From Shigella phage ESh12, in sequence record ON528724: 39,704 nt of DNA; one strand, given 5' to 3'. Positions 1,113 to 37,806 of the stretch are shown here, piece by piece; the stretch's first letter is position 1, and every line of letters starts with the position of its first letter. The notes under the pieces were generated by a model. It was not told the DNA's origin and did no database searches. It saw only the letters and a list, made by a program, of their open reading frames with translations. Made by a program: the position numbers and the translations under genes.

Positions 1113-3227
1113 ATGCTCGTAAGTGACATTGAGGCCAACAACCTCTTAGAGAAAGTCACCAAGTTTCACTGTGGCGTTATCTATGACTACCGTGATGGTG
1201 AGTATCATAGTTATCGTCCGGGCGACTTCGGGGCGTATCTGGATGCGCTGGAAGCCGAGGTGAAGCGAGGTGGGCTTATTGTTTTCCATAACGGTCACAA
1301 ATATGACGTTCCGGCTTTAGAGAAACTCGCAAAGCTGCAACTCAATCGTGACTTCAAGTTACCACGTGAGAATTGTATTGACACACTGGTACTCTCGCGT
1401 TTACTTCATGCGAACCTTAAAGACACAGACATGGGGCTTCTTCGTTCCGGGAAACTACCCGGTCGTCGCTTCGGGTCTCATGCTCTGGAGGCATGGGGTT
1501 ATCGCTTGGGCGAGATGAAAGGTGAATACAAGGACGACTTCAAGGCTATGCTAGAAGAGCAGGGCGAAGAATATGTTGATGGTGCTGAGTGGGTTTCGTT
1601 CAACGAGCCGATGATGGCGTATAACGTTCAAGACGTTGTGGTCACTGTCAAGCTCTTAGAGAAATTCCTTACAGACCTCCACTACTTCCCTGCGGGTATG
1701 GACTTCACGAAGTACGATGCGGATTTATTCTGGCGTGAAGCTGGCGAGTCTGTGGATATTGAGCATCGTGCAGCGTGGCTGTTAGCGAAGCAGGAGCGTA
1801 ACGGCTTCCCGTTCAACACACAGGCCATTGAGGAACTTTATGTAGAACTGGCAGCGAAACGCGCAGAACTTCTGCGAAAGTTAACCGAAACGTTTGGCTC
1901 GTGGTATCAACCGAAAGGTGGTAAGGAACTCTTCAAGCACCCACGTACAGGCAAGCCGCTGCCGAGTTATCCTCGCGTGGTCTATCCGAAACAGGGTGGC
2001 GTGTATAAGAAGCCTCGTAATAAGGCACAGCGCGAAGGTCTTGAACCTTGCGACTTGGACACGAGGGATTACATGGAGGGTGCTCCGTATACTCCGGTCG
2101 AGTTCGTTACGTTCAAGCCAAGTAGCCGTGACCACATTCAGAAGAAACTACAGGAGGCCGGATGGGTTCCTGAGAAGTTCACCGATAAGGGTGCGCCTGT
2201 GGTGGACGATGAGGTCTTGGAGCATGTACGAGTGGATGACCCTGAGAAGCAGGCGTGCATTGACTTGATTAAAGAGTACCTGATGATTCAGAAGCGAATC
2301 GGTCAGGCGGCAGAGGGTGACAAAGCGTGGTTACGTTATGTTCAAGATGATGGTAAGATTCATGGAGCCGTTAACCCTAACGGTGCAGTTACTGGTCGTG
2401 CTACTCATAGTTTCCCAAACCTTGCACAAATACCCGGTGTTCGTTCTCCTTACGGGGAGCAGTGTCGTAGTGCTTTTGGTGCCGAACATCATTTGGATGG
2501 GATTACTGGTAAGCCGTGGGTGCAAGCGGGGATAGACGCCAGTGGCTTAGAGTTGCGCTGTCTGGCACACTTCATGGCTCGCTTCGACAACGGAGAGTAT
2601 GCGAATGAGATTCTCAACGGTGACATTCACACCAAGAACCAGAACGCTGCGGAACTCCCAACGCGCGACAACGCCAAGACATTCATTTACGGGTTCCTTT
2701 ACGGAGCCGGAGATGAGAAGATTGGTCAGATTGTTGGGGCCGGGAAGGAGCGCGGGAAGGAACTCAAGAAGAAATTCTTAGAGAACACCCCGGCGATTGC
2801 AGCGCTACGAGAAGCTATCCAACAGTCCCTCGTTAAGTCTTCCGCTTGGATTGGTGGTGAGCAGAAAGTCCAGTGGAAACGCCGTTGGATTAAGGGTCTG
2901 GATGGTCGCAAGGTTCACGTCAGGTCTCCACACGCAGCGCTCAACACATTGTTGCAGTCTGCTGGTGCTCTGATTTGTAAGCTGTGGATTATCAAGACCG
3001 AAGAGATGCTCATTGAGAAAGGCTTGAAGCATGGCTGGGATGGTGACTTTGCGTACATGGCTTGGGTTCACGATGAGATTCAGGTGGCCTGCCGTACCGA
3101 GCACATCGCTCAGATTGTTATTGACACCGCGCAGGAAGCTATGCGTTGGGTCGGAGAGCATTGGGCTTTCCGTTGTCGTTTAGATACAGAAGGTAAGATG
3201 GGGCCGAATTGGGCTGTCTGCCACTAA
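1113..3227 (+). CDS. 5: DNA polymerase gp5
   Basis: 704 aa, same length as T7 gp5 (from memory); exonuclease motifs and polymerase motifs (DGITGKPWVQAGIDASGLELR, KTFIYGFLYGAG, HDEIQ); RBS AAAGGAGG. Confidence 0.96.
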   Translation: MLVSDIEANNLLEKVTKFHCGVIYDYRDGEYHSYRPGDFGAYLDALEAEVKRGGLIVFHNGHKYDVPALEKLAKLQLNRDFKLPRENCIDTLVLSRLLHANLKDTDMGLLRSGKLPGRRFGSHALEAWGYRLGEMKGEYKDDFKAMLEEQGEEYVDGAEWVSFNEPMMAYNVQDVVVTVKLLEKFLTDLHYFPAGMDFTKYDADLFWREAGESVDIEHRAAWLLAKQERNGFPFNTQAIEELYVELAAKRAELLRKLTETFGSWYQPKGGKELFKHPRTGKPLPSYPRVVYPKQGGVYKKPRNKAQREGLEPCDLDTRDYMEGAPYTPVEFVTFKPSSRDHIQKKLQEAGWVPEKFTDKGAPVVDDEVLEHVRVDDPEKQACIDLIKEYLMIQKRIGQAAEGDKAWLRYVQDDGKIHGAVNPNGAVTGRATHSFPNLAQIPGVRSPYGEQCRSAFGAEHHLDGITGKPWVQAGIDASGLELRCLAHFMARFDNGEYANEILNGDIHTKNQNAAELPTRDNAKTFIYGFLYGAGDEKIGQIVGAGKERGKELKKKFLENTPAIAALREAIQQSLVKSSAWIGGEQKVQWKRRWIKGLDGRKVHVRSPHAALNTLLQSAGALICKLWIIKTEEMLIEKGLKHGWDGDFAYMAWVHDEIQVACRTEHIAQIVIDTAQEAMRWVGEHWAFRCRLDTEGKMGPNWAVCH

Positions 3228-3246
3228 TTCTATAGGAGAAATTATT

Positions 3247-3546
3247 ATGGCTATGACCAAGAAATTTAAAGTGTCATTCGATGTTACCGCTAAGATGGCA
3301 TCTGACGTTCAGGCAATCTTGGAGAAAGACATTCTGCACCTGTGTAAGCAGGTTGGCTCAGGCGCTATTGTCCCCACTGGTAAACAGAAAGAGATGATTG
3401 TCCAGTTCCTGACGTATGGCATGGAGGGGCTGATGGCCTTCCTTGTGCGAACGTCTTTCCGTGAGGCAATCAAAGATATGCACGAAGAGTATGCCGATAA
3501 GGATAGCTTCAAGCTGTCTCCCGCTACTGTACGGGAGGTGTTCTAA
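3247..3546 (+). CDS. 5.5: gp5.5 (H-NS-binding protein family)
   Basis: 99 aa, synteny and similarity to T7 gp5.5; stop overlaps start of 5.7 (TAATGA). Confidence 0.8.
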   Translation: MAMTKKFKVSFDVTAKMASDVQAILEKDILHLCKQVGSGAIVPTGKQKEMIVQFLTYGMEGLMAFLVRTSFREAIKDMHEEYADKDSFKLSPATVREVF

Positions 3547-3755
3547 TGAGTGAATACCTGAAAGTGCTTGCAGCTATCAAAGGCTGCCCTAAGTCCTTTC
3601 AGTCGAACTATGTGCGAAACAATGCGGCTCTCGTAGCTGAGGCCGCTTCTCGTGGACACATTAGCTGTTTGACTGTGGGCGGTCGCAATGGTGGAGCATG
3701 GGAGGTCACAGCCTCTGGTGTGCGCTTCCTTAAACGAATGGGAGGTTGCGTATGA
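3546..3755 (+). CDS. 5.7: gp5.7
   Basis: 69 aa, same length and position as T7 gp5.7. Confidence 0.75.
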   Translation: MSEYLKVLAAIKGCPKSFQSNYVRNNAALVAEAASRGHISCLTVGGRNGGAWEVTASGVRFLKRMGGCV

Positions 3756-3934
3756 TTATGCCAAAGAGTGACACCGTAACGATGACCCGTGATGCGTGGA
3801 ACGATGTTAGCGCGTACATTGATAAGCTGGAGAAAGACCTAGAGTTCCTGAATGCGCTTAAGGCGTGTGGTGTGGATAATTGGGACGGATACTCTGATGC
3901 AGTCGAAATGGTTTACGGGGAGGATGACGAATGA
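3752..3934 (+). CDS. 5.9: gp5.9-like (RecBCD inhibitor family)
   Basis: ATG at 3752 after GGGAGG; acidic small protein with DAWNDVSAYIDKLEKD resembling T7 gp5.9. Confidence 0.6.
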   Translation: MIMPKSDTVTMTRDAWNDVSAYIDKLEKDLEFLNALKACGVDNWDGYSDAVEMVYGEDDE

Positions 3935-13000: not shown

Positions 13001-13411
13001 ATGTATATTACAAAGTGTTTACAAATCCATGCCGACAACTTTCAGCCGTCCAGAGAGGACATTCTGGAAGCTGAGGCACTAGGTGTTGAACCAAAGGTAA
13101 TTCCTGATGAGAACACTGTGGCAATGCTCAGCAATAACGCTGTGTTGGCAATCGGTGGCAATCAGGGAGACCGAGTGTGGTTCCTTACCTCTAAGTACGT
13201 CCCACTGTTTAACTTAAAGGAACGCTTAGAGTTTCGTAGACTTATCATTGAATATCGTGATATGATGCTAAGCCAGTACGAGTCCATTTGGAACTTCGTT
13301 TGGGTAGGTAATAAGTCACACATTCGTTTCCTAAAGACCATAGGTGCGGTATTCCATAATGAGTTTATCGCTGATGGTCAATTCCAATTATTCACTATCA
13401 GTAGGAGGTAA
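13001..13411 (+). CDS. 13: gp13 virion assembly protein
   Basis: 136 aa, syntenic. Confidence 0.75.
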   Translation: MYITKCLQIHADNFQPSREDILEAEALGVEPKVIPDENTVAMLSNNAVLAIGGNQGDRVWFLTSKYVPLFNLKERLEFRRLIIEYRDMMLSQYESIWNFVWVGNKSHIRFLKTIGAVFHNEFIADGQFQLFTISRR

Positions 13412-13413
13412 CT

Positions 13414-14007
13414 ATGTGCTGGATGGCAGCGATTCCTATTGCTATGGCTGGTGCCCAAGCTCTAAGTAGCCAGAACAGTGCTGACAAGGCGCGAGTGGCA
13501 CAGACCGAAGCTGGACGCCGACAGGCAATTGAGATGGTAAAAGAGATGAATATCCAAAATGCCAACGCCTCGCTGGAACAACGGGACGCCCTTGAAGCTG
13601 CATCCTCTGAGTTGACTTCACGTAACATGCGGAAGGTACAGGCTATGGGAACAATCCGTGCAGCTATCGGCGAGAGTATGCTAGAAGGCGAATCCATGAA
13701 GCGCATAAAGCGTATCGAAGAGGGCAACTACATTCGGGAGGCTAATAGTGTCACCGAGAATTACCGCCGAGACTACGCGAGTATCTTTGCGCAACAGTTG
13801 GGACGCACTCAGTCAACAGCAAGTCAAGTCGATGCAATGTACAAGAGCGAGGCCAAGGGTAAGTCTGGTCTGATGCGTGTACTAGACCCTCTGTCCATTA
13901 TGGGTCAGGAAGCTGCAAGTCAATATGCGGCTGGTGGATTTGACAAGAAAGGTGGAAACCAAGCAGCACCTATCAGTGCCGCCAAAGGAACCAAGACCGG
14001 GAGGTAA
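13414..14007 (+). CDS. 14: Internal virion protein A gp14
   Basis: 197 aa, RBS AGGAGG, syntenic. Confidence 0.85.
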   Translation: MCWMAAIPIAMAGAQALSSQNSADKARVAQTEAGRRQAIEMVKEMNIQNANASLEQRDALEAASSELTSRNMRKVQAMGTIRAAIGESMLEGESMKRIKRIEEGNYIREANSVTENYRRDYASIFAQQLGRTQSTASQVDAMYKSEAKGKSGLMRVLDPLSIMGQEAASQYAAGGFDKKGGNQAAPISAAKGTKTGR

Positions 14008-14009
14008 TA

Positions 14010-16253
14010 ATGGCTAGTAAACTAAATAGTGTTTTAGGCAACATGGCGACTCCCGGTATGGAACGACTCCGGGGCGTCAAAGGTATGGACTACCGGGCAG
14101 CAACCATTCAGGCTGAACAACCAAGAGCGAGTCTTCTGGACTCCATTGGTCGATTCGCTAAGGCTGGTGCCGATATGTACATGGCTAAAGATGAACGCGA
14201 TAAGCAACGAGCCGATGAGCGCTCCAACGAGATTATCCGTAAGCTGACCCCTGAGCAGCGCCGACAGGCTATCCAGAATGGTACACTGCTGTATCAGGAT
14301 GACCCATACGCAATGCAAGCCTTGAAGTTCAAGACCGGGCGTAACGCTGCGTTCCTCGTTGACGATGAGGTTCAACAGGCCATCAAAGAGGGTCGCTTCC
14401 GTACTCGTGAAGAGATGGAGCAGTATCGTCACTCACGCCTACAGGAAAACTCGAAGTCGTTCGCTGAGCAGTTCGGCATCAATGAGATGGACGAGGAATA
14501 CCAGAAGGGTTTCAATGCGAATATCACCGAGCGTAACATTGCTCTGTATGGCGCACATGATACCTTCCTGAGCGACCAAGCGCAGAAGGGTGCAATCCTG
14601 AACTCGAAGGTTGAACTCAATGGTGTCCTGTCTGACCCTGACCTACTGTCTCGTCCTGAGTCCGGTGAGTTCTTCCAGAACTACATTGACAACTCCTTGG
14701 TTACAGGGATGACCGACAATCAGGCTCAACAGGTTATCTCTTCGTCCCTGAATGACGTGCTACAGCGTCCGGGTGGTGCCGCCTTCTTGCAGAACATTGA
14801 GAACCGCAAGGTAACTCTAAATGGCGCTACGACTACCTATCGTGAACTGATGGGTGATGAGCAGTGGCAGGCAATGATGATTAAGGCACAGCACACTCAA
14901 TTCCAGAACAACGCAAAGTTAACCGAGAAGTTCCGATTGGACATTAATTCTGCGATTAACCAAGCGGACACTGGTAAAGGCTGGGAGATGCTTCAAGGTA
15001 TCAAGGCCGAACTCGATAAGATTCAGCCGGGTGAAGAGATGACTCCTGAGCGTGAGTGGTTGATTTCCGCACAGGAACAGATGCGCACACGCTTCAAGCA
15101 TGAACAGGCTGAGACAGCCAAGCTGATGGACAAGCAACAGAAGACCCTGAATAAATCTTTGGTCATCGACAAGCAGTTCCAGAAGCGCCTCAACGGTGAG
15201 TACGTCTCGACCGACTATAAGGACATGCCGACAAACGAGAACACTGGTGAGTTTACCCATAGCGATATGGTCAACTATGCGAACCAAAAGTTGGCGCAGA
15301 TTGACGCTATGGACCTTCCAGAGGCGCAGAAGGACCGCATGAAGTTGCAGTACCTCCAAGCTGACTCTAAAGATGGTGCCTTCCGAACCGCTGTAGGGCA
15401 GATGGTGTCGGATGCTCGTGGCGAGTGGAGGGCGGCTGTCATCAATGGCGAGATGCCTGATAGCACACCAGCCCTTGACTCCCTACGCAAGATGCGCAAC
15501 ATTGACCCAGGATTGTTCGCAGCACTGTATCCCGACGATGCCGAGCTGTTTCACACAATGGACCAATTGGATCGACAGGGGATAAAGCCGCAAGCCCTCA
15601 TTAACGCCACCAAATCCCGCCAAGGGAAAACGCGTGAAATGCAGATTGAGGATGAGCGTGCGTTCAGTGAGCTGATGAACAACTCTGCGCAGCCCGAACT
15701 GAAATACCTTCCGTCTTCCATGCGTGAGTACGCTCAGATTATTTATGACTCTGAGAAGTACCTAACAGGAAACCCTAAGGATGCCATATCAGCGGTTAGT
15801 TCGTTCCTAAAGGACACTACCTATACATTCTCTTCTGATAATGTAGATGGTGGAACTTATGGAGTTATTCCTCGCAACATGATGCAGGTAACAGATGACC
15901 CTAAATCTTGGGAGCAAGGTAAGGATATCATTGAGCAAGCTGTTAAGAAGTACCAAGAGCAAAACCCTTGGGTGACTAACAAGCAACTTAAGGTTAGCCA
16001 ACAGGGTAACTTAATCAAAATCTATGATACCACTACCAACTTGGGCATAAGTTACGATAACACACTGCTACGCAAGATGTACAAGAACTACGCTGAGCAA
16101 CAGGCGGCAGCGGCTGAGAAGAAAGCCTTAGCGGAAGCCAATAAGCGAGCACCTATCGTCGCGGCAACCAAGGCCCGTAAAGAAGCAGCTAAGCGTGTCC
16201 AAGAGAAACGGAACAAGGTTCCTAAGTTTATCTATGGACGTAAAGAAGACTAA
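14010..16253 (+). CDS. 15: Internal virion protein C gp15
   Basis: 747 aa, same length as T7 gp15 (from memory). Confidence 0.9.
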   Translation: MASKLNSVLGNMATPGMERLRGVKGMDYRAATIQAEQPRASLLDSIGRFAKAGADMYMAKDERDKQRADERSNEIIRKLTPEQRRQAIQNGTLLYQDDPYAMQALKFKTGRNAAFLVDDEVQQAIKEGRFRTREEMEQYRHSRLQENSKSFAEQFGINEMDEEYQKGFNANITERNIALYGAHDTFLSDQAQKGAILNSKVELNGVLSDPDLLSRPESGEFFQNYIDNSLVTGMTDNQAQQVISSSLNDVLQRPGGAAFLQNIENRKVTLNGATTTYRELMGDEQWQAMMIKAQHTQFQNNAKLTEKFRLDINSAINQADTGKGWEMLQGIKAELDKIQPGEEMTPEREWLISAQEQMRTRFKHEQAETAKLMDKQQKTLNKSLVIDKQFQKRLNGEYVSTDYKDMPTNENTGEFTHSDMVNYANQKLAQIDAMDLPEAQKDRMKLQYLQADSKDGAFRTAVGQMVSDARGEWRAAVINGEMPDSTPALDSLRKMRNIDPGLFAALYPDDAELFHTMDQLDRQGIKPQALINATKSRQGKTREMQIEDERAFSELMNNSAQPELKYLPSSMREYAQIIYDSEKYLTGNPKDAISAVSSFLKDTTYTFSSDNVDGGTYGVIPRNMMQVTDDPKSWEQGKDIIEQAVKKYQEQNPWVTNKQLKVSQQGNLIKIYDTTTNLGISYDNTLLRKMYKNYAEQQAAAAEKKALAEANKRAPIVAATKARKEAAKRVQEKRNKVPKFIYGRKED

Positions 16254-26052: not shown

Positions 26053-26075
26053 CTGTTTACCCTCACTAAAGGGAA
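26053..26075 (+). promoter_or_regulatory. T3-type phage RNAP promoter (phiOL, left-end replication promoter)
   Basis: TGTTTACCCTCACTAAAGGGAAT followed by AT-rich tandem repeat. Confidence 0.65.
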
Positions 26076-26129: not shown

Positions 26130-26165
26130 TTGACTTTAAGTTACCTTTAAAGCTATTATTCATCA
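26130..26165 (+). promoter_or_regulatory. Host sigma70 early promoter (A1 position)
   Basis: -35 TTGACT at 26130, -10 TATTAT at 26154. Confidence 0.6.
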
Positions 26166-26258
26166 CGTCAACGGGACAACGGCCTTAAAGCCACTCCCTG
26201 AGATACCGGAGTCAACCGGATAAGTAGACAGCCTGATAAGTCATACGAAAAACAGGCA

Positions 26259-26294
26259 TTGACAACATGAAGTAAACGCAGTAAGATGCACAAC
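26259..26294 (+). promoter_or_regulatory. Host sigma70 early promoter A2
   Basis: TTGACAACATGAAGTAAACGCAGTAAGAT; -35 TTGACA, 17-nt spacer, -10 TAAGAT; near-identical to T7 A2 from memory. Confidence 0.85.
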
Positions 26295-26368
26295 ATAGCG
26301 TCAACCACCAAATCGGTGTCTTCTAGGTGACTTAAGCGCACCACGGCACATAAAGCGAAACAAAATGG

Positions 26369-26404
26369 TTGACAACATGAAGTAAACACGGTACGATGTA
26401 CCAC
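26369..26404 (+). promoter_or_regulatory. Host sigma70 early promoter A3
   Basis: TTGACAACATGAAGTAAACACGGTACGATGTACCACATG identical to T7 A3 from memory. Confidence 0.9.
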
Positions 26405-26599
26405 ATGAAAGACACCGAGTGTCGTAGGTGTAAAAACGCGACATAGTGGATAGATGGCGAAAGCACAAGCGACCACGATAATAAAGAGCTTGTCGCACTT
26501 ATAACGCAAGTGATGGCTAACACTGAAATAGCCTCGGCTCGACGAAACTGTAGCCTAAAGTTCTTTAACAATCTGGATAATAGCTCTTGAGTGTACCGA

Positions 26600-26660
26600 T
26601 GTATAAGCGAATAACTCAAGGTCGCACTGAAAGCGTGGCCTTTATGATATTCACTTAACA
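26600..26660 (+). promoter_or_regulatory. RNase III-type hairpin (R0.3 position)
   Basis: TAGCTCTTGAGTG...AACTCAAGGTCGCACTGAAAGCGTGGCCTTTATGATATTCACT. Confidence 0.6.
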
Positions 26661-26684: not shown

Positions 26685-27143
26685 ATGATTTTCACTAAAG
26701 AGCCTGCTAACGTCTTCTATGTACTGGTGTCAGCTTTCCGTTCTAACCTTGATGATGAGGTGAACATGAGTCGCCACCGCCACATGGTGAGCGAATTACG
26801 TGCCGCACCGGGCATCTACGGCGAACTTGAGTCTACCGATTTGACCGGGTGCTATCGTGAGGCAATCGCAAGCGCACCGACTGAGGAAAAAACGGTTCGT
26901 GTACGCTGCAAGGACAAGGCGCAGGCACTCAATGTTGCACGCTTAGCTTGCAATGAGTATGAGCAAGATTGCGTACTGGTATACAAATCACAGACTCACA
27001 CAGCGGGATTGGTGTACGCTAAAGGTATCGACGGGTATAAGGCTGAACGTCTGCCGGGTAGCTTCCAAGAGGTGCCTAAAGGCGCACCACTGAAAGGGTG
27101 CTTTACGATTGACGAGTTCGGACGCCGCTGGCAAGTGCAGTAA
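26685..27143 (+). CDS. 0.3: gp0.3 S-adenosylmethionine-degrading enzyme (T3 SAMase, anti-restriction)
   Basis: 152 aa, first gene after A1-A3 and R0.3; recognised as the T3 0.3 protein from memory (MIFTKEPA...GRRWQVQ). Confidence 0.85.
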   Translation: MIFTKEPANVFYVLVSAFRSNLDDEVNMSRHRHMVSELRAAPGIYGELESTDLTGCYREAIASAPTEEKTVRVRCKDKAQALNVARLACNEYEQDCVLVYKSQTHTAGLVYAKGIDGYKAERLPGSFQEVPKGAPLKGCFTIDEFGRRWQVQ

Positions 27144-27145
27144 GT

Positions 27146-27195
27146 GTTAAACTCAAGGTCGCTCCATGCGAGTGGCCTTTATGATTATCACTTAA
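27146..27195 (+). promoter_or_regulatory. RNase III-type hairpin
   Basis: AAACTCAAGGTCGCTCCATGCGAGTGGCCTTTATGATTATCA. Confidence 0.55.
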
Positions 27196-27214: not shown

Positions 27215-27499
27215 ATGCGCTTAAGTAAAGATACAGCGGTAGCTCTGAGGTCAGCAATTGAATCCAGAGCCGCACACAACGATGGAGGTCTTGCGGATGT
27301 TGCACGGGCTTACAAGGAGAAAGGCCTAACATTCCGTAGATTCATGTGGGACTGTTATCACGCAGTGGGCTTTAAAGAGACCACCAGAATCATATCAGAG
27401 CACAACACGGTGACAGTGATTGGTGGGCATATAACAGACGTCAATGATTCGCACATCGAAACTATGCTCAAGGTTGCACTGAAAGACATGGCTTATTAG
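27215..27499 (+). CDS. Early hypothetical protein
   Basis: 94-aa ORF, ATG after AAAGGAAG; no recognisable motif. Confidence 0.5.
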   Translation: MRLSKDTAVALRSAIESRAAHNDGGLADVARAYKEKGLTFRRFMWDCYHAVGFKETTRIISEHNTVTVIGGHITDVNDSHIETMLKVALKDMAY

Positions 27500-27502
27500 T
27501 GA

Positions 27503-27550
27503 TTAACTACAGGTCGGTAGCTCGTAGCGGCCTGAATGATAATTACTAAA
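27503..27550 (+). promoter_or_regulatory. RNase III-type hairpin variant
   Basis: AACTACAGGTCGGTAGCTCGTAGCGGCCTGAATGATAATTAC. Confidence 0.4.
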
Positions 27551-27919: not shown

Positions 27920-27960
27920 TAACGCGATTTGCAATCACTGGGCAACAGACTTCAAGTCTA

Positions 27961-28010
27961 TCAAGTGTTAAACTCAAGGTCGCTCCATACGAGTGGCCTT
28001 TATGATTAAC
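27961..28010 (+). promoter_or_regulatory. RNase III-type hairpin
   Basis: TAAACTCAAGGTCGCTCCATACGAGTGGCCTTTATGATTAAC. Confidence 0.55.
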
Positions 28011-28105
28011 ATTACAGGAGAGCATGATATGTTCGAGAAGGTTGTGAACTGGTCTATCGGGCCGATTATCATCTTAATCATTATGAACAACTTAGGGTAT
28101 TTCTC

Positions 28106-28303
28106 ATGATGGCAGCACTAATCGCACTGGTCTATCTGTGCATCGCAATGTACTTTATGCGAGACTTTAAGCGCGGTCTGGCAATACACAAGGCAACACT
28201 GAGTTACTTTAAGTGGGGATTCATCCCACGGTTTACGGTTCGTGAACGCAACGGACGCTTTAAGGCCAACAAGGTGGGAGTATTCTACATTGCAACCCAT
28301 TAA
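28106..28303 (+). CDS. Early small membrane protein (65 aa)
   Basis: Hydrophobic N-terminus MMAALIALVYLCIAMYFM then basic tail; preceded by a 26-codon hydrophobic mini-ORF at 28029..28109. Confidence 0.35.
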   Translation: MMAALIALVYLCIAMYFMRDFKRGLAIHKATLSYFKWGFIPRFTVRERNGRFKANKVGVFYIATH

Positions 28304-28742
28304 GACCTGCGTAGCGTGTGGTGAGATAAAGCCGCTTGAGTTCTACACAAAGAATGCTGCGTCACCTGATGGACACATCGGCACATGCAAGGCGTGTAAA
28401 GCCAAACAGCAGCGCGAAAGGCGCTTAAAGGCGAAAGCCGCCTCTGTGCCTACCGATAAGGCGCTTAAGGATGCAAAGCGGAGACGCAACAACCACCTGA
28501 AAGTAAACTATGGTATTGATGAACTGACCTACCGTAAAATGTATGAGGAGCAGAACGGAGTGTGCGCCATATGCAAGCACCCGGAGAGTATAGCCGGTAG
28601 GCAGCTCTGTGTTGACCACTCCCACATCACCGGGGACGTTCGGGGTCTTTTATGTTCAAACTGCAACAGGGGAATAGGGCTACTAAAGGATTCACCTGAA
28701 TTGTTACGCAATGCCTTCCACTATTTAACGGGCAAACTTTAA
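28290..28742 (+). CDS. Endonuclease VII-like (His-Me finger / HNH) nuclease
   Basis: CAICKHPE...LCVDHSHITGDVRGLLCSNCNRGIGLL matches the T4 endonuclease VII zinc-binding/catalytic signature from memory; start uncertain (TTG 28290 after GGTGGGAG, or GTG 28242). Confidence 0.7.
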   Translation: MQPIKTCVACGEIKPLEFYTKNAASPDGHIGTCKACKAKQQRERRLKAKAASVPTDKALKDAKRRRNNHLKVNYGIDELTYRKMYEEQNGVCAICKHPESIAGRQLCVDHSHITGDVRGLLCSNCNRGIGLLKDSPELLRNAFHYLTGKL

Positions 28743-28800
28743 GACCAATAAGGTCGGTATCTTCTACAGCACATTAACTACTACCTAAGGACACATTGAA

Positions 28801-29910
28801 ATGACTTTCACCGAAGCACAAGCCGCACTCGAAGCTATCCGCAACCTACCGATTGAGCGCATGAACGAGCGCCAGCCAATGCTGGTGGCTCTTGTGGCTG
28901 CTATCGTGAACTCTGAGACTCAGGAGGGGCAACTGACAGCGGCTAAAGGAAACCGGAGTCTTGAGGACATGGACTACTGGCAGACGCTGGCAGAGCGCAT
29001 GAGGGATGTTGGTTTCATTAAGTTAGGAAATGGTCACTTTAGCGCAGCATATGAGCACGCGTTGTTACCGGGCAAGGTCATCAAGGTAGGCTTTAAGAAA
29101 GAGGACTCAGGCGCAGCCTATGCAGCCTTCTGCCGTATGAACCAAGGCCGGGAAGGTATCCCTACGGTGTACGACATTCAGCGCCACGCTGGTTGTTACA
29201 CGGTGGTTCTTGACTATCTGAACCCGCTTAACGACTGGTGCTACGGTGAGAGTGACAAGGTGCGTCACCACTTCAAAGCCGCACGGGAAATCATTGAGGA
29301 GGATTGCTTCGATACCGCCGAAGAGTACCCAATAAGTGACGGGTTCATTGAGACCTGCAAGGATATCCGCAAGTTCTTCTTAGGCATCGCATCGTTCGAT
29401 TGTCACAGCGGTAACATGATGAAAGACCAGATGGGACGCCTGATTATCACAGACCCGGTATCATTCAGCGCAGACGACAAGTTAAAGCCGGGTGAGTTCC
29501 ACTGTGACCCGGATGAACTCATCGCTGAGATTGAGGCGCTGAGAGCGCAGGAAGCGATTGACCGCTGTAAGGCACGCAAGGCACGCCGTGACCCTAAAGG
29601 AGACTTTCAGGTAGCACGAAAGGCCCGTGCCAAATGGCGCAGAAAGGCCTCTAAGCGTGCTAAACGTGACGCTAAGGTACTCGCTAAGATGCGCATGGAT
29701 GCCAACGAGCAACGCAGGGCCGAGCCTAGGGCACGTATGTTGTGGGGCGATAAGCACTGGCGCAACGCTTGGGTGCAGCACATGAATGTTGACTTCGCAC
29801 GGCTCGAACTGTTAGCAGCCGCACAGATGGCACAGATAGACCACAAGGCTATCGTATGGGGCAAGCCGTTACACATAGACGCATACCTTGACAAGAGACT
29901 GCAAGGCTGA
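28801..29910 (+). CDS. 0.7: gp0.7 serine/threonine protein kinase (host shut-off)
   Basis: 369 aa; GNGHFSAAYEH, VIKVGFKKEDSGAAY, HSGNMM, ITDPVSFS and basic C-terminal domain match T7 gp0.7. Confidence 0.9.
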   Translation: MTFTEAQAALEAIRNLPIERMNERQPMLVALVAAIVNSETQEGQLTAAKGNRSLEDMDYWQTLAERMRDVGFIKLGNGHFSAAYEHALLPGKVIKVGFKKEDSGAAYAAFCRMNQGREGIPTVYDIQRHAGCYTVVLDYLNPLNDWCYGESDKVRHHFKAAREIIEEDCFDTAEEYPISDGFIETCKDIRKFFLGIASFDCHSGNMMKDQMGRLIITDPVSFSADDKLKPGEFHCDPDELIAEIEALRAQEAIDRCKARKARRDPKGDFQVARKARAKWRRKASKRAKRDAKVLAKMRMDANEQRRAEPRARMLWGDKHWRNAWVQHMNVDFARLELLAAAQMAQIDHKAIVWGKPLHIDAYLDKRLQG

Positions 29911-29980: not shown

Positions 29981-32635
29981 ATGAACATCATCGAAAACAT
30001 CGAAAAGAATGACTTCTCCGAAATCGAACTGGCTGCTATCCCGTTCAACACACTGGCAGACCACTACGGTAGCGCATTGGCTCGTGAACAACTGGCTTTA
30101 GAACATGAGTCTTATGAGCTAGGCGAGCGCCGCTTCCTCAAGATGCTTGAGCGTCAAGCGAAAGCTGGTGAGATTGCAGACAACGCAGCCGCTAAGCCAT
30201 TACTCGCTACGCTTCTCCCTAAGTTAACCGCACGCATCGTTGAGTGGCTCGAAGAGTACGCATCGAAGAAAGGCCGCAAGCCTAGCGCATACGCACCGCT
30301 CCAGTTACTCAAGCCGGAGGCCTCCGCGTTTATCACCCTGAAAGTTATCCTTGCATCACTGACCAGCACGAACATGACAACCATTCAGGCCGCTGCTGGT
30401 ATGCTGGGGAAGGCCATTGAGGATGAGGCACGTTTCGGGCGTATCCGTGACCTCGAAGCGAAGCACTTCAAGAAGCACGTTGAGGAACAGCTCAACAAGC
30501 GCCACGGGCAAGTCTACAAGAAGGCCTTTATGCAGGTGGTCGAGGCCGATATGATTGGTCGAGGCCTGCTTGGTGGCGAGGCGTGGTCTAGCTGGGATAA
30601 AGAAACCACGATGCACGTAGGGATTCGCCTGATTGAAATGCTGATTGAATCCACGGGTCTGGTGGAATTACAGCGACACAACGCAGGTAACGCAGGCTCT
30701 GACCATGAGGCACTGCAACTGGCCCAAGAGTACGTCGATGTGTTAGCGAAGCGTGCAGGCGCTCTGGCGGGCATCTCTCCGATGTTCCAGCCGTGTGTCG
30801 TACCGCCTAAACCTTGGGTAGCAATCACCGGAGGCGGCTATTGGGCTAACGGTCGCAGACCTTTGGCACTCGTTCGCACTCACTCTAAGAAGGGACTGAT
30901 GCGCTATGAGGATGTTTACATGCCAGAAGTTTACAAGGCGGTCAACATCGCACAGAACACCGCATGGAAAATCAACAAGAAAGTTCTTGCGGTTGTCAAT
31001 GAAATTGTTAACTGGAAGAATTGCCCGGTAGCAGACATTCCATCACTGGAGCGCCAAGAGTTACCGCCTAAGCCGGACGACATTGACACCAACGAGGCAG
31101 CACTCAAGGAGTGGAAGAAAGCCGCCGCTGGTATCTATCGCTTGGACAAGGCACGAGTGTCTCGCCGTATCAGCTTAGAGTTCATGCTGGAGCAGGCCAA
31201 CAAGTTTGCAAACAAGAAAGCAATCTGGTTCCCTTACAACATGGACTGGCGCGGTCGTGTGTACGCTGTGCCGATGTTCAACCCGCAAGGCAACGACATG
31301 ACGAAAGGTCTGCTGACCCTCGCTAAAGGCAAGCCAATCGGTGAGGAAGGGTTCTACTGGCTGAAAATCCACGGTGCGAACTGTGCGGGTGTCGATAAGG
31401 TGCCTTTCCCTGAGCGCATCGCGTTCATTGAGAAGCACGTAGACGACATTCTGGCTTGCGCCAAAGACCCAATCAATAACACTTGGTGGGCTGAGCAGGA
31501 CTCACCGTTCTGTTTCCTCGCGTTTTGCTTCGAGTATGCAGGCGTTGCGCACCACGGTCTGAGCTACAATTGCTCTCTGCCGCTGGCGTTCGATGGGTCT
31601 TGCTCCGGTATCCAGCACTTCTCCGCGATGCTCCGCGATGAGGTAGGCGGTCGCGCGGTTAACCTACTGCCAAGCGAAACCGTGCAGGACATTTACGGCA
31701 TCGTTGCACAGAAAGTAAACGAGATTCTCAAACAGGATGCAATCAACGGCACACCTAACGAGATGATTACCGTGACCGATAAGGACACCGGGGAAATCTC
31801 TGAGAAGCTCAAGCTGGGAACCTCAACGCTGGCGCAACAGTGGCTGGCGTATGGTGTAACCCGTAGCGTAACTAAACGTTCGGTCATGACGCTGGCTTAC
31901 GGTTCCAAGGAGTTCGGCTTTCGTCAACAGGTACTGGACGACACCATTCAGCCTGCGATCGACAGCGGTAAGGGCTTGATGTTCACCCAACCTAACCAAG
32001 CGGCTGGCTATATGGCTAAGCTGATTTGGGACGCGGTGAGCGTGACCGTAGTCGCAGCGGTTGAGGCGATGAACTGGCTCAAGTCTGCCGCTAAGCTGCT
32101 GGCTGCTGAGGTCAAGGACAAGAAGACCAAGGAGATTCTGCGCCACCGTTGCGCGGTTCACTGGACTACGCCGGACGGCTTCCCGGTCTGGCAGGAATAC
32201 CGCAAGCCACTCCAGAAGCGTCTCGATATGATTTTCTTAGGGCAATTCCGTCTGCAACCGACGATTAATACCCTCAAGGATTCAGGCATTGACGCACACA
32301 AGCAGGAATCTGGCATCGCTCCTAACTTTGTTCACTCACAGGATGGTAGCCACCTGCGCATGACAGTCGTTTATGCTCACGAGAAGTATGGTATTGAGTC
32401 CTTTGCGCTCATCCATGACAGCTTTGGGACTATTCCGGCAGACGCTGGTAAGCTCTTTAAGGCTGTGCGTGAAACGATGGTTCTCACCTACGAGAACAAC
32501 GATGTGCTGGCAGACTTCTATGACCAGTTTGCAGACCAGCTACACGAGACCCAACTTGACAAGATGCCTCCTCTTCCGAAGAAAGGGAACCTGAACCTGC
32601 AAGACATTCTCAAGTCTGACTTTGCCTTTGCATAA
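29981..32635 (+). CDS. 1: Single-subunit DNA-dependent RNA polymerase gp1, T3 specificity
   Basis: 884 aa from MNIIENIEKNDFSEIELAAIPF; near-identical to T3 RNAP from memory; consistent with T3-type promoters throughout. Confidence 0.97.
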   Translation: MNIIENIEKNDFSEIELAAIPFNTLADHYGSALAREQLALEHESYELGERRFLKMLERQAKAGEIADNAAAKPLLATLLPKLTARIVEWLEEYASKKGRKPSAYAPLQLLKPEASAFITLKVILASLTSTNMTTIQAAAGMLGKAIEDEARFGRIRDLEAKHFKKHVEEQLNKRHGQVYKKAFMQVVEADMIGRGLLGGEAWSSWDKETTMHVGIRLIEMLIESTGLVELQRHNAGNAGSDHEALQLAQEYVDVLAKRAGALAGISPMFQPCVVPPKPWVAITGGGYWANGRRPLALVRTHSKKGLMRYEDVYMPEVYKAVNIAQNTAWKINKKVLAVVNEIVNWKNCPVADIPSLERQELPPKPDDIDTNEAALKEWKKAAAGIYRLDKARVSRRISLEFMLEQANKFANKKAIWFPYNMDWRGRVYAVPMFNPQGNDMTKGLLTLAKGKPIGEEGFYWLKIHGANCAGVDKVPFPERIAFIEKHVDDILACAKDPINNTWWAEQDSPFCFLAFCFEYAGVAHHGLSYNCSLPLAFDGSCSGIQHFSAMLRDEVGGRAVNLLPSETVQDIYGIVAQKVNEILKQDAINGTPNEMITVTDKDTGEISEKLKLGTSTLAQQWLAYGVTRSVTKRSVMTLAYGSKEFGFRQQVLDDTIQPAIDSGKGLMFTQPNQAAGYMAKLIWDAVSVTVVAAVEAMNWLKSAAKLLAAEVKDKKTKEILRHRCAVHWTTPDGFPVWQEYRKPLQKRLDMIFLGQFRLQPTINTLKDSGIDAHKQESGIAPNFVHSQDGSHLRMTVVYAHEKYGIESFALIHDSFGTIPADAGKLFKAVRETMVLTYENNDVLADFYDQFADQLHETQLDKMPPLPKKGNLNLQDILKSDFAFA

Positions 32636-32646
32636 CAAGCACTTAG

Positions 32647-32669
32647 CATTAACCCTCACTAACGGGAGA
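32647..32669 (+). promoter_or_regulatory. T3-type phage RNAP promoter (phi1.05 position)
   Basis: CATTAACCCTCACTAACGGGAGA. Confidence 0.8.
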
Positions 32670-33232: not shown

Positions 33233-33505
33233 ATGGGACGTATCTATAGCGGCAACCTGAACGATTACAAAGATGCGGTAGCGCGTCTACAGGAAGACCA
33301 TGACGTGACCGTGAAGATGGAGTCATTCAGCTATGAAAACCCAGCGAAGATGTGCAGGTCATCAGGTGAGGTTCTCCGCGTGTTCACACGCTCAGGGCAT
33401 CCGGTGGCATCCAGAACCTTCGAGCATAGTGACAGCGATGTGCAAATCAACGCGCAGACTGCATGGCTCCGCAAGGTTCACAGCGATTTGAAACACTGGA
33501 AGTAA
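33233..33505 (+). CDS. 1.2: gp1.2 (host dGTPase inhibitor family)
   Basis: 90 aa from MGRIYSGNL, ends HWK; similar to T7 gp1.2; ATG choice among three adjacent Met is uncertain. Confidence 0.75.
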   Translation: MGRIYSGNLNDYKDAVARLQEDHDVTVKMESFSYENPAKMCRSSGEVLRVFTRSGHPVASRTFEHSDSDVQINAQTAWLRKVHSDLKHWK

Positions 33506-33525
33506 TAACCCTCACTAACAGGAGA
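33503..33525 (+). promoter_or_regulatory. T3-type phage RNAP promoter (phi1.3 position)
   Basis: TAATAACCCTCACTAACAGGAGA. Confidence 0.75.
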
Positions 33526-33531
33526 AACGAA

Positions 33532-33948
33532 ATGAGAAACATCGAACGGTTCAACGCAAAGACTGAACCTTGCGGTGACTGTCTACGTTGGACTGGTCGA
33601 ATCCAGCCTAACGGTTACGGACAGTTTCGCCTCGAAGGTAAAACACAATACGCACATCGAGCAGCTTACAAGCTGTTTATCGGTGAATTGGACAATAAAG
33701 ATACAGTCCTCCACTCGTGCGATAACAGGTGGTGTGTGAACCCTGAGCATTTGACCAAGGGAACGCAGGCCGATAACCTGAAAGACATGGCGATAAAGGG
33801 TAGGCACCACGCCATTAAGATTCCGAACGATGCCATTGAGGGCATCCGTAAAGACCCTCGCTCTGCCACTGTGATAGCGGCTGAGTGGGGCGTCCATCCA
33901 ACAACCATCCATAAGATTAAGCGAAACATCAACAGGAGATTCGTATGA
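33532..33948 (+). CDS. HNH endonuclease (free-standing, homing-endonuclease-like)
   Basis: 138 aa; HSCDNRWCVNPEHLTKGTQADN HNH core, Cys-containing N-terminal region, C-terminal helix-turn-helix-like tail; stop overlaps ligase ATG (ATGA). Confidence 0.8.
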   Translation: MRNIERFNAKTEPCGDCLRWTGRIQPNGYGQFRLEGKTQYAHRAAYKLFIGELDNKDTVLHSCDNRWCVNPEHLTKGTQADNLKDMAIKGRHHAIKIPNDAIEGIRKDPRSATVIAAEWGVHPTTIHKIKRNINRRFV

Positions 33949-34969: not shown

Positions 34970-35003
34970 CTGGCTCACCTTCACGGGTGGGCCTTTCTTC
35001 GTT
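34970..35003 (+). terminator. TE-type early (host RNAP) rho-independent terminator
   Basis: CTGGCTCACCTTCACGGGTGGGCCTTTCTTCGTT; near-identical to T7 TE from memory. Confidence 0.8.
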
Positions 35004-36913: not shown

Positions 36914-37390
36914 ATGGAACTTAGAGAGAAACTAAAGGCTTACAGCGAAGTTTCTCATAACGGGTGCTGGGAGTGGCAACGCTACCGGATGCCCTGTGGT
37001 TACGGTAGGATTAGACACGGAGGCCGAATGGAACTAACGCATCGTCTATCCTACCTAGCATTCAACGGGGATATACCTGATGGTCTTGTTGTTCGACATA
37101 AGTGTGACAACAAATGCTGCGTTAACCCTGAGCACCTTACGCTGGGTACTCAAAAGGACAACGTTAAGGATGCAATAGACCGTGGTCAATTCGTCTACAG
37201 GGAGAACCCGAAAGGTGCAAAGCACCACATGGCTAAACTTAATGAGAAACAGGTTATGGAGGTTTACAACTCGACACAGACCCAAAGCAGCCTAGCAGAG
37301 ACCTATGGTGTATCTCGACAATTAATCAGCGCGATTAAGAGAGGTAAACTATGGCAGCACGTTACGCAGCACGCGGAGTTAAACGAGTAG
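36914..37390 (+). CDS. HNH endonuclease (paralog of 33532..33948)
   Basis: 158 aa; HKCDNKCCVNPEHLTLGTQKDN HNH core; ATG immediately after gp2.5 stop; 3 prime end overlaps gene 3 by 40 nt. Confidence 0.8.
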   Translation: MELREKLKAYSEVSHNGCWEWQRYRMPCGYGRIRHGGRMELTHRLSYLAFNGDIPDGLVVRHKCDNKCCVNPEHLTLGTQKDNVKDAIDRGQFVYRENPKGAKHHMAKLNEKQVMEVYNSTQTQSSLAETYGVSRQLISAIKRGKLWQHVTQHAELNE

Positions 37391-37806
37391 GATCATATAG
37401 AAGCGGCTTAGAGCAGAAGAACATGGAGATGCTGGAACGCAAGGGAATCAAGGGACAGTATGAAATGTGGTCTATTCCATATGTTATCCCTGCATCGACC
37501 CACAAGTACACACCAGACATAATCCTACCCAATGGAATCATTATTGAGACCAAGGGTCTATGGGATAGTGAAGACCGTAAGAAACACTTACTGATTCGTG
37601 AGCAGATGCCTGAGTTGGATATTCGTTTGGTATTCTCTTCGAGCCGCTCTAAGTTATACAAAGGGTCTCCAACCAGTTACGGTGAGTGGGCCGAAAAGCA
37701 TGGTATTCTATTTGCTGACAAGCTGATTCCTGTGGAGTGGCTTAAAGAACCTAAGAAGGAGATACCGTGGGATAAACTAATTGCAAAGAAAGGAGTTAAG
37801 AAATAA
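37351..37806 (+). CDS. 3: Endonuclease I gp3 (Holliday-junction resolvase)
   Basis: 151 aa; PYVIPAS, YTPDIILPNGIIIETKGLW, KKHLLIREQ, VFSSSRSKLYKGSPTSYGEW match T7 gp3. Confidence 0.92.
   Translation: MAARYAARGVKRVGSYRSGLEQKNMEMLERKGIKGQYEMWSIPYVIPASTHKYTPDIILPNGIIIETKGLWDSEDRKKHLLIREQMPELDIRLVFSSSRSKLYKGSPTSYGEWAEKHGILFADKLIPVEWLKEPKKEIPWDKLIAKKGVKK

Follow-up and report, generated by a model that had tools for sequence, protein, structure and literature searches.

The window analysed here, the whole 39,704-nucleotide stretch of Shigella phage ESh12 (sequence record ON528724), is the complete, circularly permuted genome of a T3-like phage of the genus Teetrevirus. Between a 0.6A-type ORF and gene 0.7 in its early region lies a free-standing gene for a nuclease with an endonuclease VII motif (Table 1). 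Around this locus the closest database relatives are Klebsiella phages, at ~94–98% identity. The genome is strongly mosaic: its early region is nearest to Klebsiella phage vB8388 (97.7%), and no record in the phage collection is close to ESh12 over the whole genome. The kinase gene 0.7 of vB8388 (2786–3896), just 3' of the nuclease, is annotated as two ORFs of 147 nt and 942 nt, which points to a frameshift or stop mutation in this gene or to an error in sequencing.

We place the nuclease gene in the class I early operon because of synteny with T7 and T3. The three sigma-70-type sites upstream match 10 of 12 positions each, and their placement agrees with the A1–A3 promoters annotated in phiSG-JL2, whose equivalents would drive the early operon. 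The T3-type phage promoter consensus is matched at 26055 and then at 32648; the consensus scan found no T3-type phage promoter between these two positions. An earlier reading of the DNA, made from the letters alone (the sequence-only reading), had assigned the gene to an operon served by host RNA polymerase, and these promoter patterns bear it out. A strong terminator-like hairpin is located at 34972, 3' of the ligase-position ORF.

An element of ~59 nt occurs in four copies (26595–26653, 27132–27190, 27487–27545 and 27953–28011) that share a conserved 10-bp hairpin (AAGGTCGCTC...GAGTGGCCTT). The copies coincide in position with RNase III sites annotated in phiSG-JL2 and flank small early-gene cassettes. 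Because homology with related phages repeatedly ends at these elements, we suggest that they mark boundaries of cassette exchange. No RNase III-like element separates the fourth copy from the nuclease, so the nuclease and 0.6A are predicted to share one processed early mRNA.

The genome holds two more free-standing nuclease genes, both on the plus strand and of the HNH_3 family (PF13392), at 33463–33948 (161 aa) and 36914–37390 (158 aa). The second of these terminates within the start of the gene for gp3 endonuclease I. Counted with the endonuclease VII-type gene, they bring the number of putative homing-type nuclease genes to at least three, drawn from two families.

Table 1 Features of the nuclease locus and of related genes in the ESh12 genome
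Feature	Position	Strand	Basis or remark
Three sigma-70-type promoter-like sites, A1–A3 equivalents	26130, 26259, 26369 (span 26130–26397)	+	
SAM hydrolase, gene 0.3	26685–27143		
Small early ORFs	gap from 0.3 to 0.6A		
RNase III-site-like hairpin element, opens the 0.6 cassette	27953–28011	+	four-copy repeat family; fold z-score -3.6
Gene 0.6A-type ORF, 65 aa, hydrophobic N-terminus	28106–28303	+	PHROG 2385, E = 8e-30
In-frame upstream extension, probably outside the nuclease	28242–28289	+	3' end of 0.6A in another frame
Direct repeat, left copy: functional 0.6A 3' end	28258–28303	+	
Endonuclease VII-motif (DHHRN-family) free-standing nuclease gene	28290–28742	+	150 aa plus stop
N-terminal Cys4 zinc-ribbon-like module (C7, C10, C33, C36)	28302–28403	+	
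Lys/Arg-rich helical linker (KAKQQRERRLKAKAAS...KDAKRRRNNHLK)	28404–28493	+	helices predicted at residues 34–51 and 56–74
Endonuclease VII-type beta-beta-alpha-metal catalytic domain	28494–28730	+	Pfam match
Direct repeat, right copy: decayed, non-coding duplicate of the 0.6A 3' end	28737–28787	+	
Gene 0.7, protein kinase / host shut-off	28801–29910	+	annotations of relatives
Gene 1, RNA polymerase	end at 32635		
gp3 endonuclease I	37351–37806		PF05367, E = 1.6e-77

Extent and family of the nuclease

The ORF described by the sequence-only reading, 28242–28742 on the plus strand and 166 aa counted from its GTG, is present and contains the quoted GVCAICKHPESIAGRQLCVDHSHITGDVRGLLCSNCNRGIGLL motif. 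Its end at 28742 holds, but its start probably lies 48 nt upstream of the true one: the most likely start codon is TTG 28290 rather than GTG 28242. We prefer TTG 28290 because of its Shine–Dalgarno spacing (GGGAG at 28276–28280 on the plus strand, 9 nt 5' of the TTG), the annotations of relatives, the N-termini of orthologues and the 0.6A coding content of the 48 nt upstream. Three of four annotated relatives have a near-identical gene whose annotation (453 nt) starts at this codon; the annotation in Klebsiella phage 31 begins one codon farther 5' (456 nt). The N-termini of orthologues fall a few residues from the TTG, with an ATG at that place in one of them. The frame is open back to 28242 only because a change from GGTAGGAG to GGTGGGAG took away a TAG that is kept in 0.65-type phages. 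In the nuclease-bearing phages this loss amounts to one A-to-G change at 28275; in 0.65-type phages the TAG ends the +1 frame.

Counted from the TTG, the nuclease overlaps 0.6A by 14 nt, and the 0.6A stop is overlapped with either start, as had been reported for the stop of the small membrane ORF that precedes the gene. In phiSG-JL2 and other T3-like records a 0.6B product is annotated, a frameshift fusion of 0.6A to 0.65. A less likely possibility for ESh12 is that a +1 shift at 28203–28303 would join the membrane-anchored N-terminus of 0.6A to the nuclease. The nuclease gene is single-copy in the window, and its GC content equals that of the genome (50.3% each), so there is no compositional hint of recent foreign origin.

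Membership of the endonuclease VII family, which had been proposed from a Cys4 and His-Me motif, was upheld by profile searches. The protein matches PF02945 (Endonuclease_7) at 84.5 bits against a curated cut-off of 23.6 bits (E = 4.7e-24, profile positions 3–81 of 82), much better than chance would give, and PHROG 2633 'endonuclease VII' with E = 6.3e-39. Homologues were found in 2,418 matching phage records. The Pfam match spans residues 69–147 of the 150-aa protein (85–163 of the 166-aa ORF), and its core follows the pattern C92-x2-C95, D109-H110-S-H112, R118, C122-x2-C125-N126, with zinc ligands C92, C95, C122 and C125 and DHHRN residues D109, H110, H112, R118 and N126. These residues align to C23, C26, D40, H41, H43, R54, C58, C61 and N62 of the T4 enzyme.

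The Cys4 module that precedes the linker and core is presumed to be the DNA-recognition domain. Six homologues were taken into the alignment: orthologues from three further T7-like lineages, gp13.5 of phiYeO3-12, F-CphI and a more distant homologue from Kayfunavirus IMM-002, which adjoins gene 0.6. The zinc ligands of the core, the DHHRN residues and the four N-terminal cysteines are all invariant across seven homologues, F-CphI included. A single-sequence AF2 model, confident for the N-terminal ~50 residues only (nuclease domain pLDDT <50), has block-mean pLDDT values of 75–90 for residues 1–50, which it folds into four short strands followed by a helix.

Comparison with characterised nucleases

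The 'DHHRN' motif family was named by Fang et al. 2018 (PMC6083498), and its first member is F-CphI (ORF177), a free-standing homing endonuclease of Synechococcus phage S-PM2 (Zeng et al. 2009; PMC6083498). Mutagenesis established that F-CphI needs its DHHRN residues for activity (Fang et al. 2018, PMC6083498). The published phylogeny separates a resolvase clade, in which the motif is N-terminal and likeness to T4 gp49 is full-length, from an endonuclease clade, in which the motif is C-terminal and full-length likeness is to F-CphI (PMC6083498). Podoviruses of the endonuclease clade all encode endonuclease I, and their endonuclease VII-motif proteins were inferred to be probably not resolvases (PMC6083498).

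Aligned over 95% of its length, the ESh12 nuclease shares 42% identity with F-CphI (E = 2e-22). The two proteins are alike in size (142 versus 150 aa) and in domain order, with an N-terminal CxxC...CxxC followed by a CxxC-DHxH-R-CxxCN core, and both are free-standing and adjoin a conserved gene. With its motif at residues 92–126 of 150 and a whole-length alignment with F-CphI, the nuclease would, on these alignments, fit the published 'endonuclease clade' and not the resolvase clade. It belongs to a described family and is no new kind of system. What differs from F-CphI is the carrier, a T3-like podovirus, and the locus, an early operon. F-CphI itself lies beside psbA, targets an intron-insertion site and, together with a group I intron, engages in 'collaborative homing'. 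A scan of the entire window against Rfam returned 0 hits and detected no group I intron, so we see no sign of collaborative homing of this kind in ESh12.

Other homologues have the architecture of the early nuclease and, as it does, occur sporadically within the same phage subfamily. Examples are gene 13.5 of phiYeO3-12 and intron-encoded copies within the DNA polymerase genes carried by Yersinia phage Berlin/YpP-G, which are ~40% identical over their full length. They sit elsewhere, between genes 13 and 14 or inside introns of gene 5, and therefore presumably have another target specificity. ESh12 has no copy of 13.5, because its ORFs 13001–13411 and 13414–14007 abut.

The top match among solved structures is the type II restriction endonuclease Hpy99I (PDB 3fc3/3gox; E = 6.5e-7). 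Its residues 139–195, in a C-terminal nuclease domain of the endonuclease VII type, align to the end of the ESh12 protein, including the GxG..KDsPe.L tail. Hpy99I is a bacterial, sequence-specific duplex cutter that has a partner methyltransferase and differs in its N-terminal domain. The ORFs scanned yielded no methyltransferase domain, and the neighbours of the nuclease are 0.6A and the 0.7 kinase. A restriction-modification nuclease of the Hpy99I type was rejected on the lack of an adjacent cognate DNA methyltransferase. We also rejected a packaging-associated HNH nuclease, as in cos phages that carry an HNH gene beside terminase: the Pfam family is another one and terminase is not near. 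T7-like phages package via terminal repeats, which counts against such a role as well.

Alleles and insertion scar at the 0.6A–0.7 junction

The interval between 0.6A and 0.7 (28304–28800) is a three-allele polymorphism in T3-like phages, filled by a spacer, gene 0.65 or the nuclease. Among 144 phage records that were DNA-matched at the locus, five carry the nuclease (Klebsiella phages vB8388, KpnP_VR4605, Keithsmous, 31 and mtp8), leaving ~96% of relatives without it. Uniform presence in T3-like phages, which the sequence-only reading had named as contrary to its proposal, is thus not the case. The commonest allele is gene 0.65 (56 aa), with ~70 records at ≥95% identity and 100 matches overall; its Shine–Dalgarno sequence and TTG start, which lie within the final codons of 0.6A, are those of the nuclease as well. 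In the third, 'empty' allele, 0.6A is followed by ~21 nt of spacer and then gene 0.7.

Three further T7-like lineages, represented by Yersinia phage WX1, Escherichia phage HZ2R8 (Teseptimavirus) and a minority of KP32-like Klebsiella phages, have orthologues with 64–88% amino-acid identity less than ~200 bp upstream of gene 0.7. Gene 0.7 is the downstream neighbour in these contexts, with a T7-type 0.6 ORF in between in HZ2R8. For the KP32-like group, 9 of 416 locus matches span at least 80% of the orthologue-containing query. Presence at a collinear site is therefore sporadic in T3-like and KP32-like phages alike, the distribution looked for in a homing gene. Distant homologues (~40–45% identity) occupy other loci of T7-like phages, gene 13.5 for example.

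Comparison with nuclease-free phages exposes the edges of the insertion. Homology ends exactly at 28303, the 0.6A stop codon; it restarts at 28737/28738 when the phage compared has the 'empty' allele and at 28788 when it is of the 0.65 type. The nuclease gene is bracketed by two copies of the 0.6A 3' end, found by a repeat search (28258–28289 versus 28737–28768, 81% identity) and lengthened by eye. The counterpart of the right copy in 'empty' phages is the true end of 0.6A, leading into the ribosome-binding site of 0.7. A CTTTAAG microhomology opens the right copy and overlaps the nuclease stop codon; it is common to the last codons and stop of the nuclease (AAA-CTT-TAA-G) and to the 0.6A codons for R-F-K. 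The AAA-CTT-TAA-G ending recurs in the KP32-like orthologue. All six nuclease-bearing phages have this scar, which has since diverged through substitutions and one 3-nt indel. No RNA structure signal was obtained for 28735–28805, the 0.6A remnant and spacer (z = +0.35), and on this value a regulatory hairpin was rejected.

The simplest history suggested by these comparisons would be one acquisition by an 'empty' T3-like phage, with duplication of ~45 nt of the 0.6A 3' end. Because the six T3-like carriers share one scar, there is evidence for only one acquisition in the genus. Variable codons in the six carriers comprise 20 synonymous and 3 non-synonymous ones (pN/pS 0.02–0.06), and the nuclease protein is therefore under strong purifying selection.

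We looked at how the remainder of the genome relates to carriers and non-carriers. The nearest matches to the DNA polymerase gene (1113–3227) are the nuclease-free Serratia phage 2050H2 (99.9%) and phiYe-F10 (99.1%), and gp15 (14010–16253) is nearest to the nuclease-free Citrobacter phage phiCFP-1 (96.3%), with carriers at ~92–93%. These rankings indicate that the carriers do not form a clonal group. In the downstream flank (0.7 and gene 1) carriers rank 1st, 2nd, 5th and 7th, with no such enrichment elsewhere in the genome. This pattern would fit transfer of the nuclease together with some flank; ordinary mosaic recombination could also explain it.

A homing target might be visible as an 'immunity' polymorphism. 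A scan for fixed nucleotide differences between six nuclease-bearing and seven nuclease-free T3-like phages, reaching over the first 1.5 kb downstream of the nuclease, found none in 0.7 or in the first ~400 bp of gene 1, so no such polymorphism marks the target there. The only two fixed differences, at 28297 and 28300, encode residues 3 and 4 of the nuclease. It may be that the insertion splits the target. DNA-level conservation across lineages is lacking at the 5' end of gene 0.7, and hence no single shared target is evident. Our literature searches found no experimental study of this early-region nuclease lineage.

Probable homing and its alternatives

We consider it probable, from architecture and distribution, that the gene product is a free-standing homing endonuclease belonging to the endonuclease VII-motif ('DHHRN') family typified by F-CphI. 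The sequence-only reading had listed a homing-type mobile nuclease as one option, and the F-CphI architecture and sporadic occurrence would make it the best supported. It had called the enzyme 'structure-specific', which we find unlikely because the catalytic motif is C-terminal, an extra N-terminal zinc ribbon is present and the C-terminal domain of T4 endonuclease VII is missing; the architecture is that of F-CphI and Hpy99I.

The first and last of these features also bear on a second Holliday-junction or branched-DNA resolvase of the T4 endonuclease VII type. With T4 gp49 the nuclease does share a Pfam family and a catalytic core, including the zinc ligands and the catalytic D-H-x-H...R...N residues. 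However, the T4 protein aligns over its residues 13–70 of 157 only (53 residues, E = 1.4e-4), and its N-terminal catalytic motif is followed by a C-terminal domain of ~85 residues for which there is no room in the ESh12 protein, which stops 24 residues past N126. In the published phylogeny, podovirus proteins built in this way belong to the endonuclease clade (PMC6083498). Neither full-length likeness to gp49 nor the standing of a sole resolvase conserved in relatives was found: gp49 is a core gene of T4, the ESh12 genome already encodes endonuclease I, and a core recombination enzyme is not expected in just 5 of 144 relatives. A resolvase is thus scarcely credible. The coexistence with gp3 endonuclease I that the sequence-only reading pointed out is real; it had been thought unexpected, yet such coexistence in podoviruses was already on record (Fang et al. 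2018, PMC6083498).

Homing endonuclease genes often decay once fixed, and the adjoining 0.6A duplicate is clearly decaying, both of which would suit an inactive remnant of a mobile nuclease that is passively carried. We hold this to be very improbable, given that the ORF is intact in six of six carriers, that catalytic and zinc-binding residues are all conserved and that pN/pS is so low. The same purifying selection speaks for a domesticated early nuclease, one that aids the phage by cutting competitor genomes that co-infect or superinfect (exclusion), host DNA or a host or satellite element and is maintained by phage-level selection. Orthologues have been kept at the early locus in several lineages, and the gene, placed among the host-takeover genes 0.3, 0.6 and 0.7, would be expressed from the DNA that enters the cell first. 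Against domestication, the gene is dispensable (~96% of close relatives lack it, and KP32-like phages likewise), no partner immunity gene or methyltransferase lies nearby, and the closest characterised relative is a homing enzyme. The act of cutting would be mechanistically identical to that of a homing nuclease, the difference being who benefits. On balance we regard domestication as unlikely, and for the early anti-host nuclease that the sequence-only reading had also offered we found no positive evidence.

As a homing endonuclease, the enzyme could work as follows. Judging from gene position, host RNA polymerase would transcribe it from the A1–A3-type promoters within the 0.6–0.7 early mRNA, and translation would begin at TTG 28290, coupled to that of 0.6A through the 14-nt overlap, on the initiation region that 0.65 uses in other T3-like phages. 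By homology, recognition of a specific duplex sequence would fall to the Cys4 zinc ribbon at the N-terminus together with the basic helices, and the C-terminal zinc-stabilised beta-beta-alpha-metal site (D109, H110, H112, R118 and N126) would cut the duplex. During mixed infection an allele without the nuclease would be cut near the 0.6A/0.7 junction, and recombinational repair off a nuclease-bearing genome would copy the nuclease gene with its flanks into the genome that was cut. Sequence comparison further suggests that the nuclease entered an 'empty' 0.6A–0.7 allele once, with a left crossover that was probably homologous and lay in or upstream of 0.6A, and a right crossover that would have been an illegitimate join of the nuclease stop region to 0.6A at the 7-nt CTTTAAG.

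The gene might also be an early competition weapon and not merely selfish, cutting the leading end (0.6–0.7) of co-infecting T3-like genomes that lack the nuclease; we think this distinctly unlikely. Such a weapon would be made from the first-entering DNA, would suit the stepwise, transcription-coupled entry of T7/T3-type genomes and would exclude or convert rivals.

The GenBank label 'endonuclease VII' implies a junction resolvase, whereas the comparisons presented here favour a probable mobile, sequence-specific homing nuclease of the F-CphI family. Its legible scar and three alleles offer a convenient natural system for following how free-standing nuclease genes invade and reshuffle the mosaic early region of T7-like therapeutic phages. 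Such genes can bias recombination among phages that are applied together, which is relevant to the design of Klebsiella phage cocktails.
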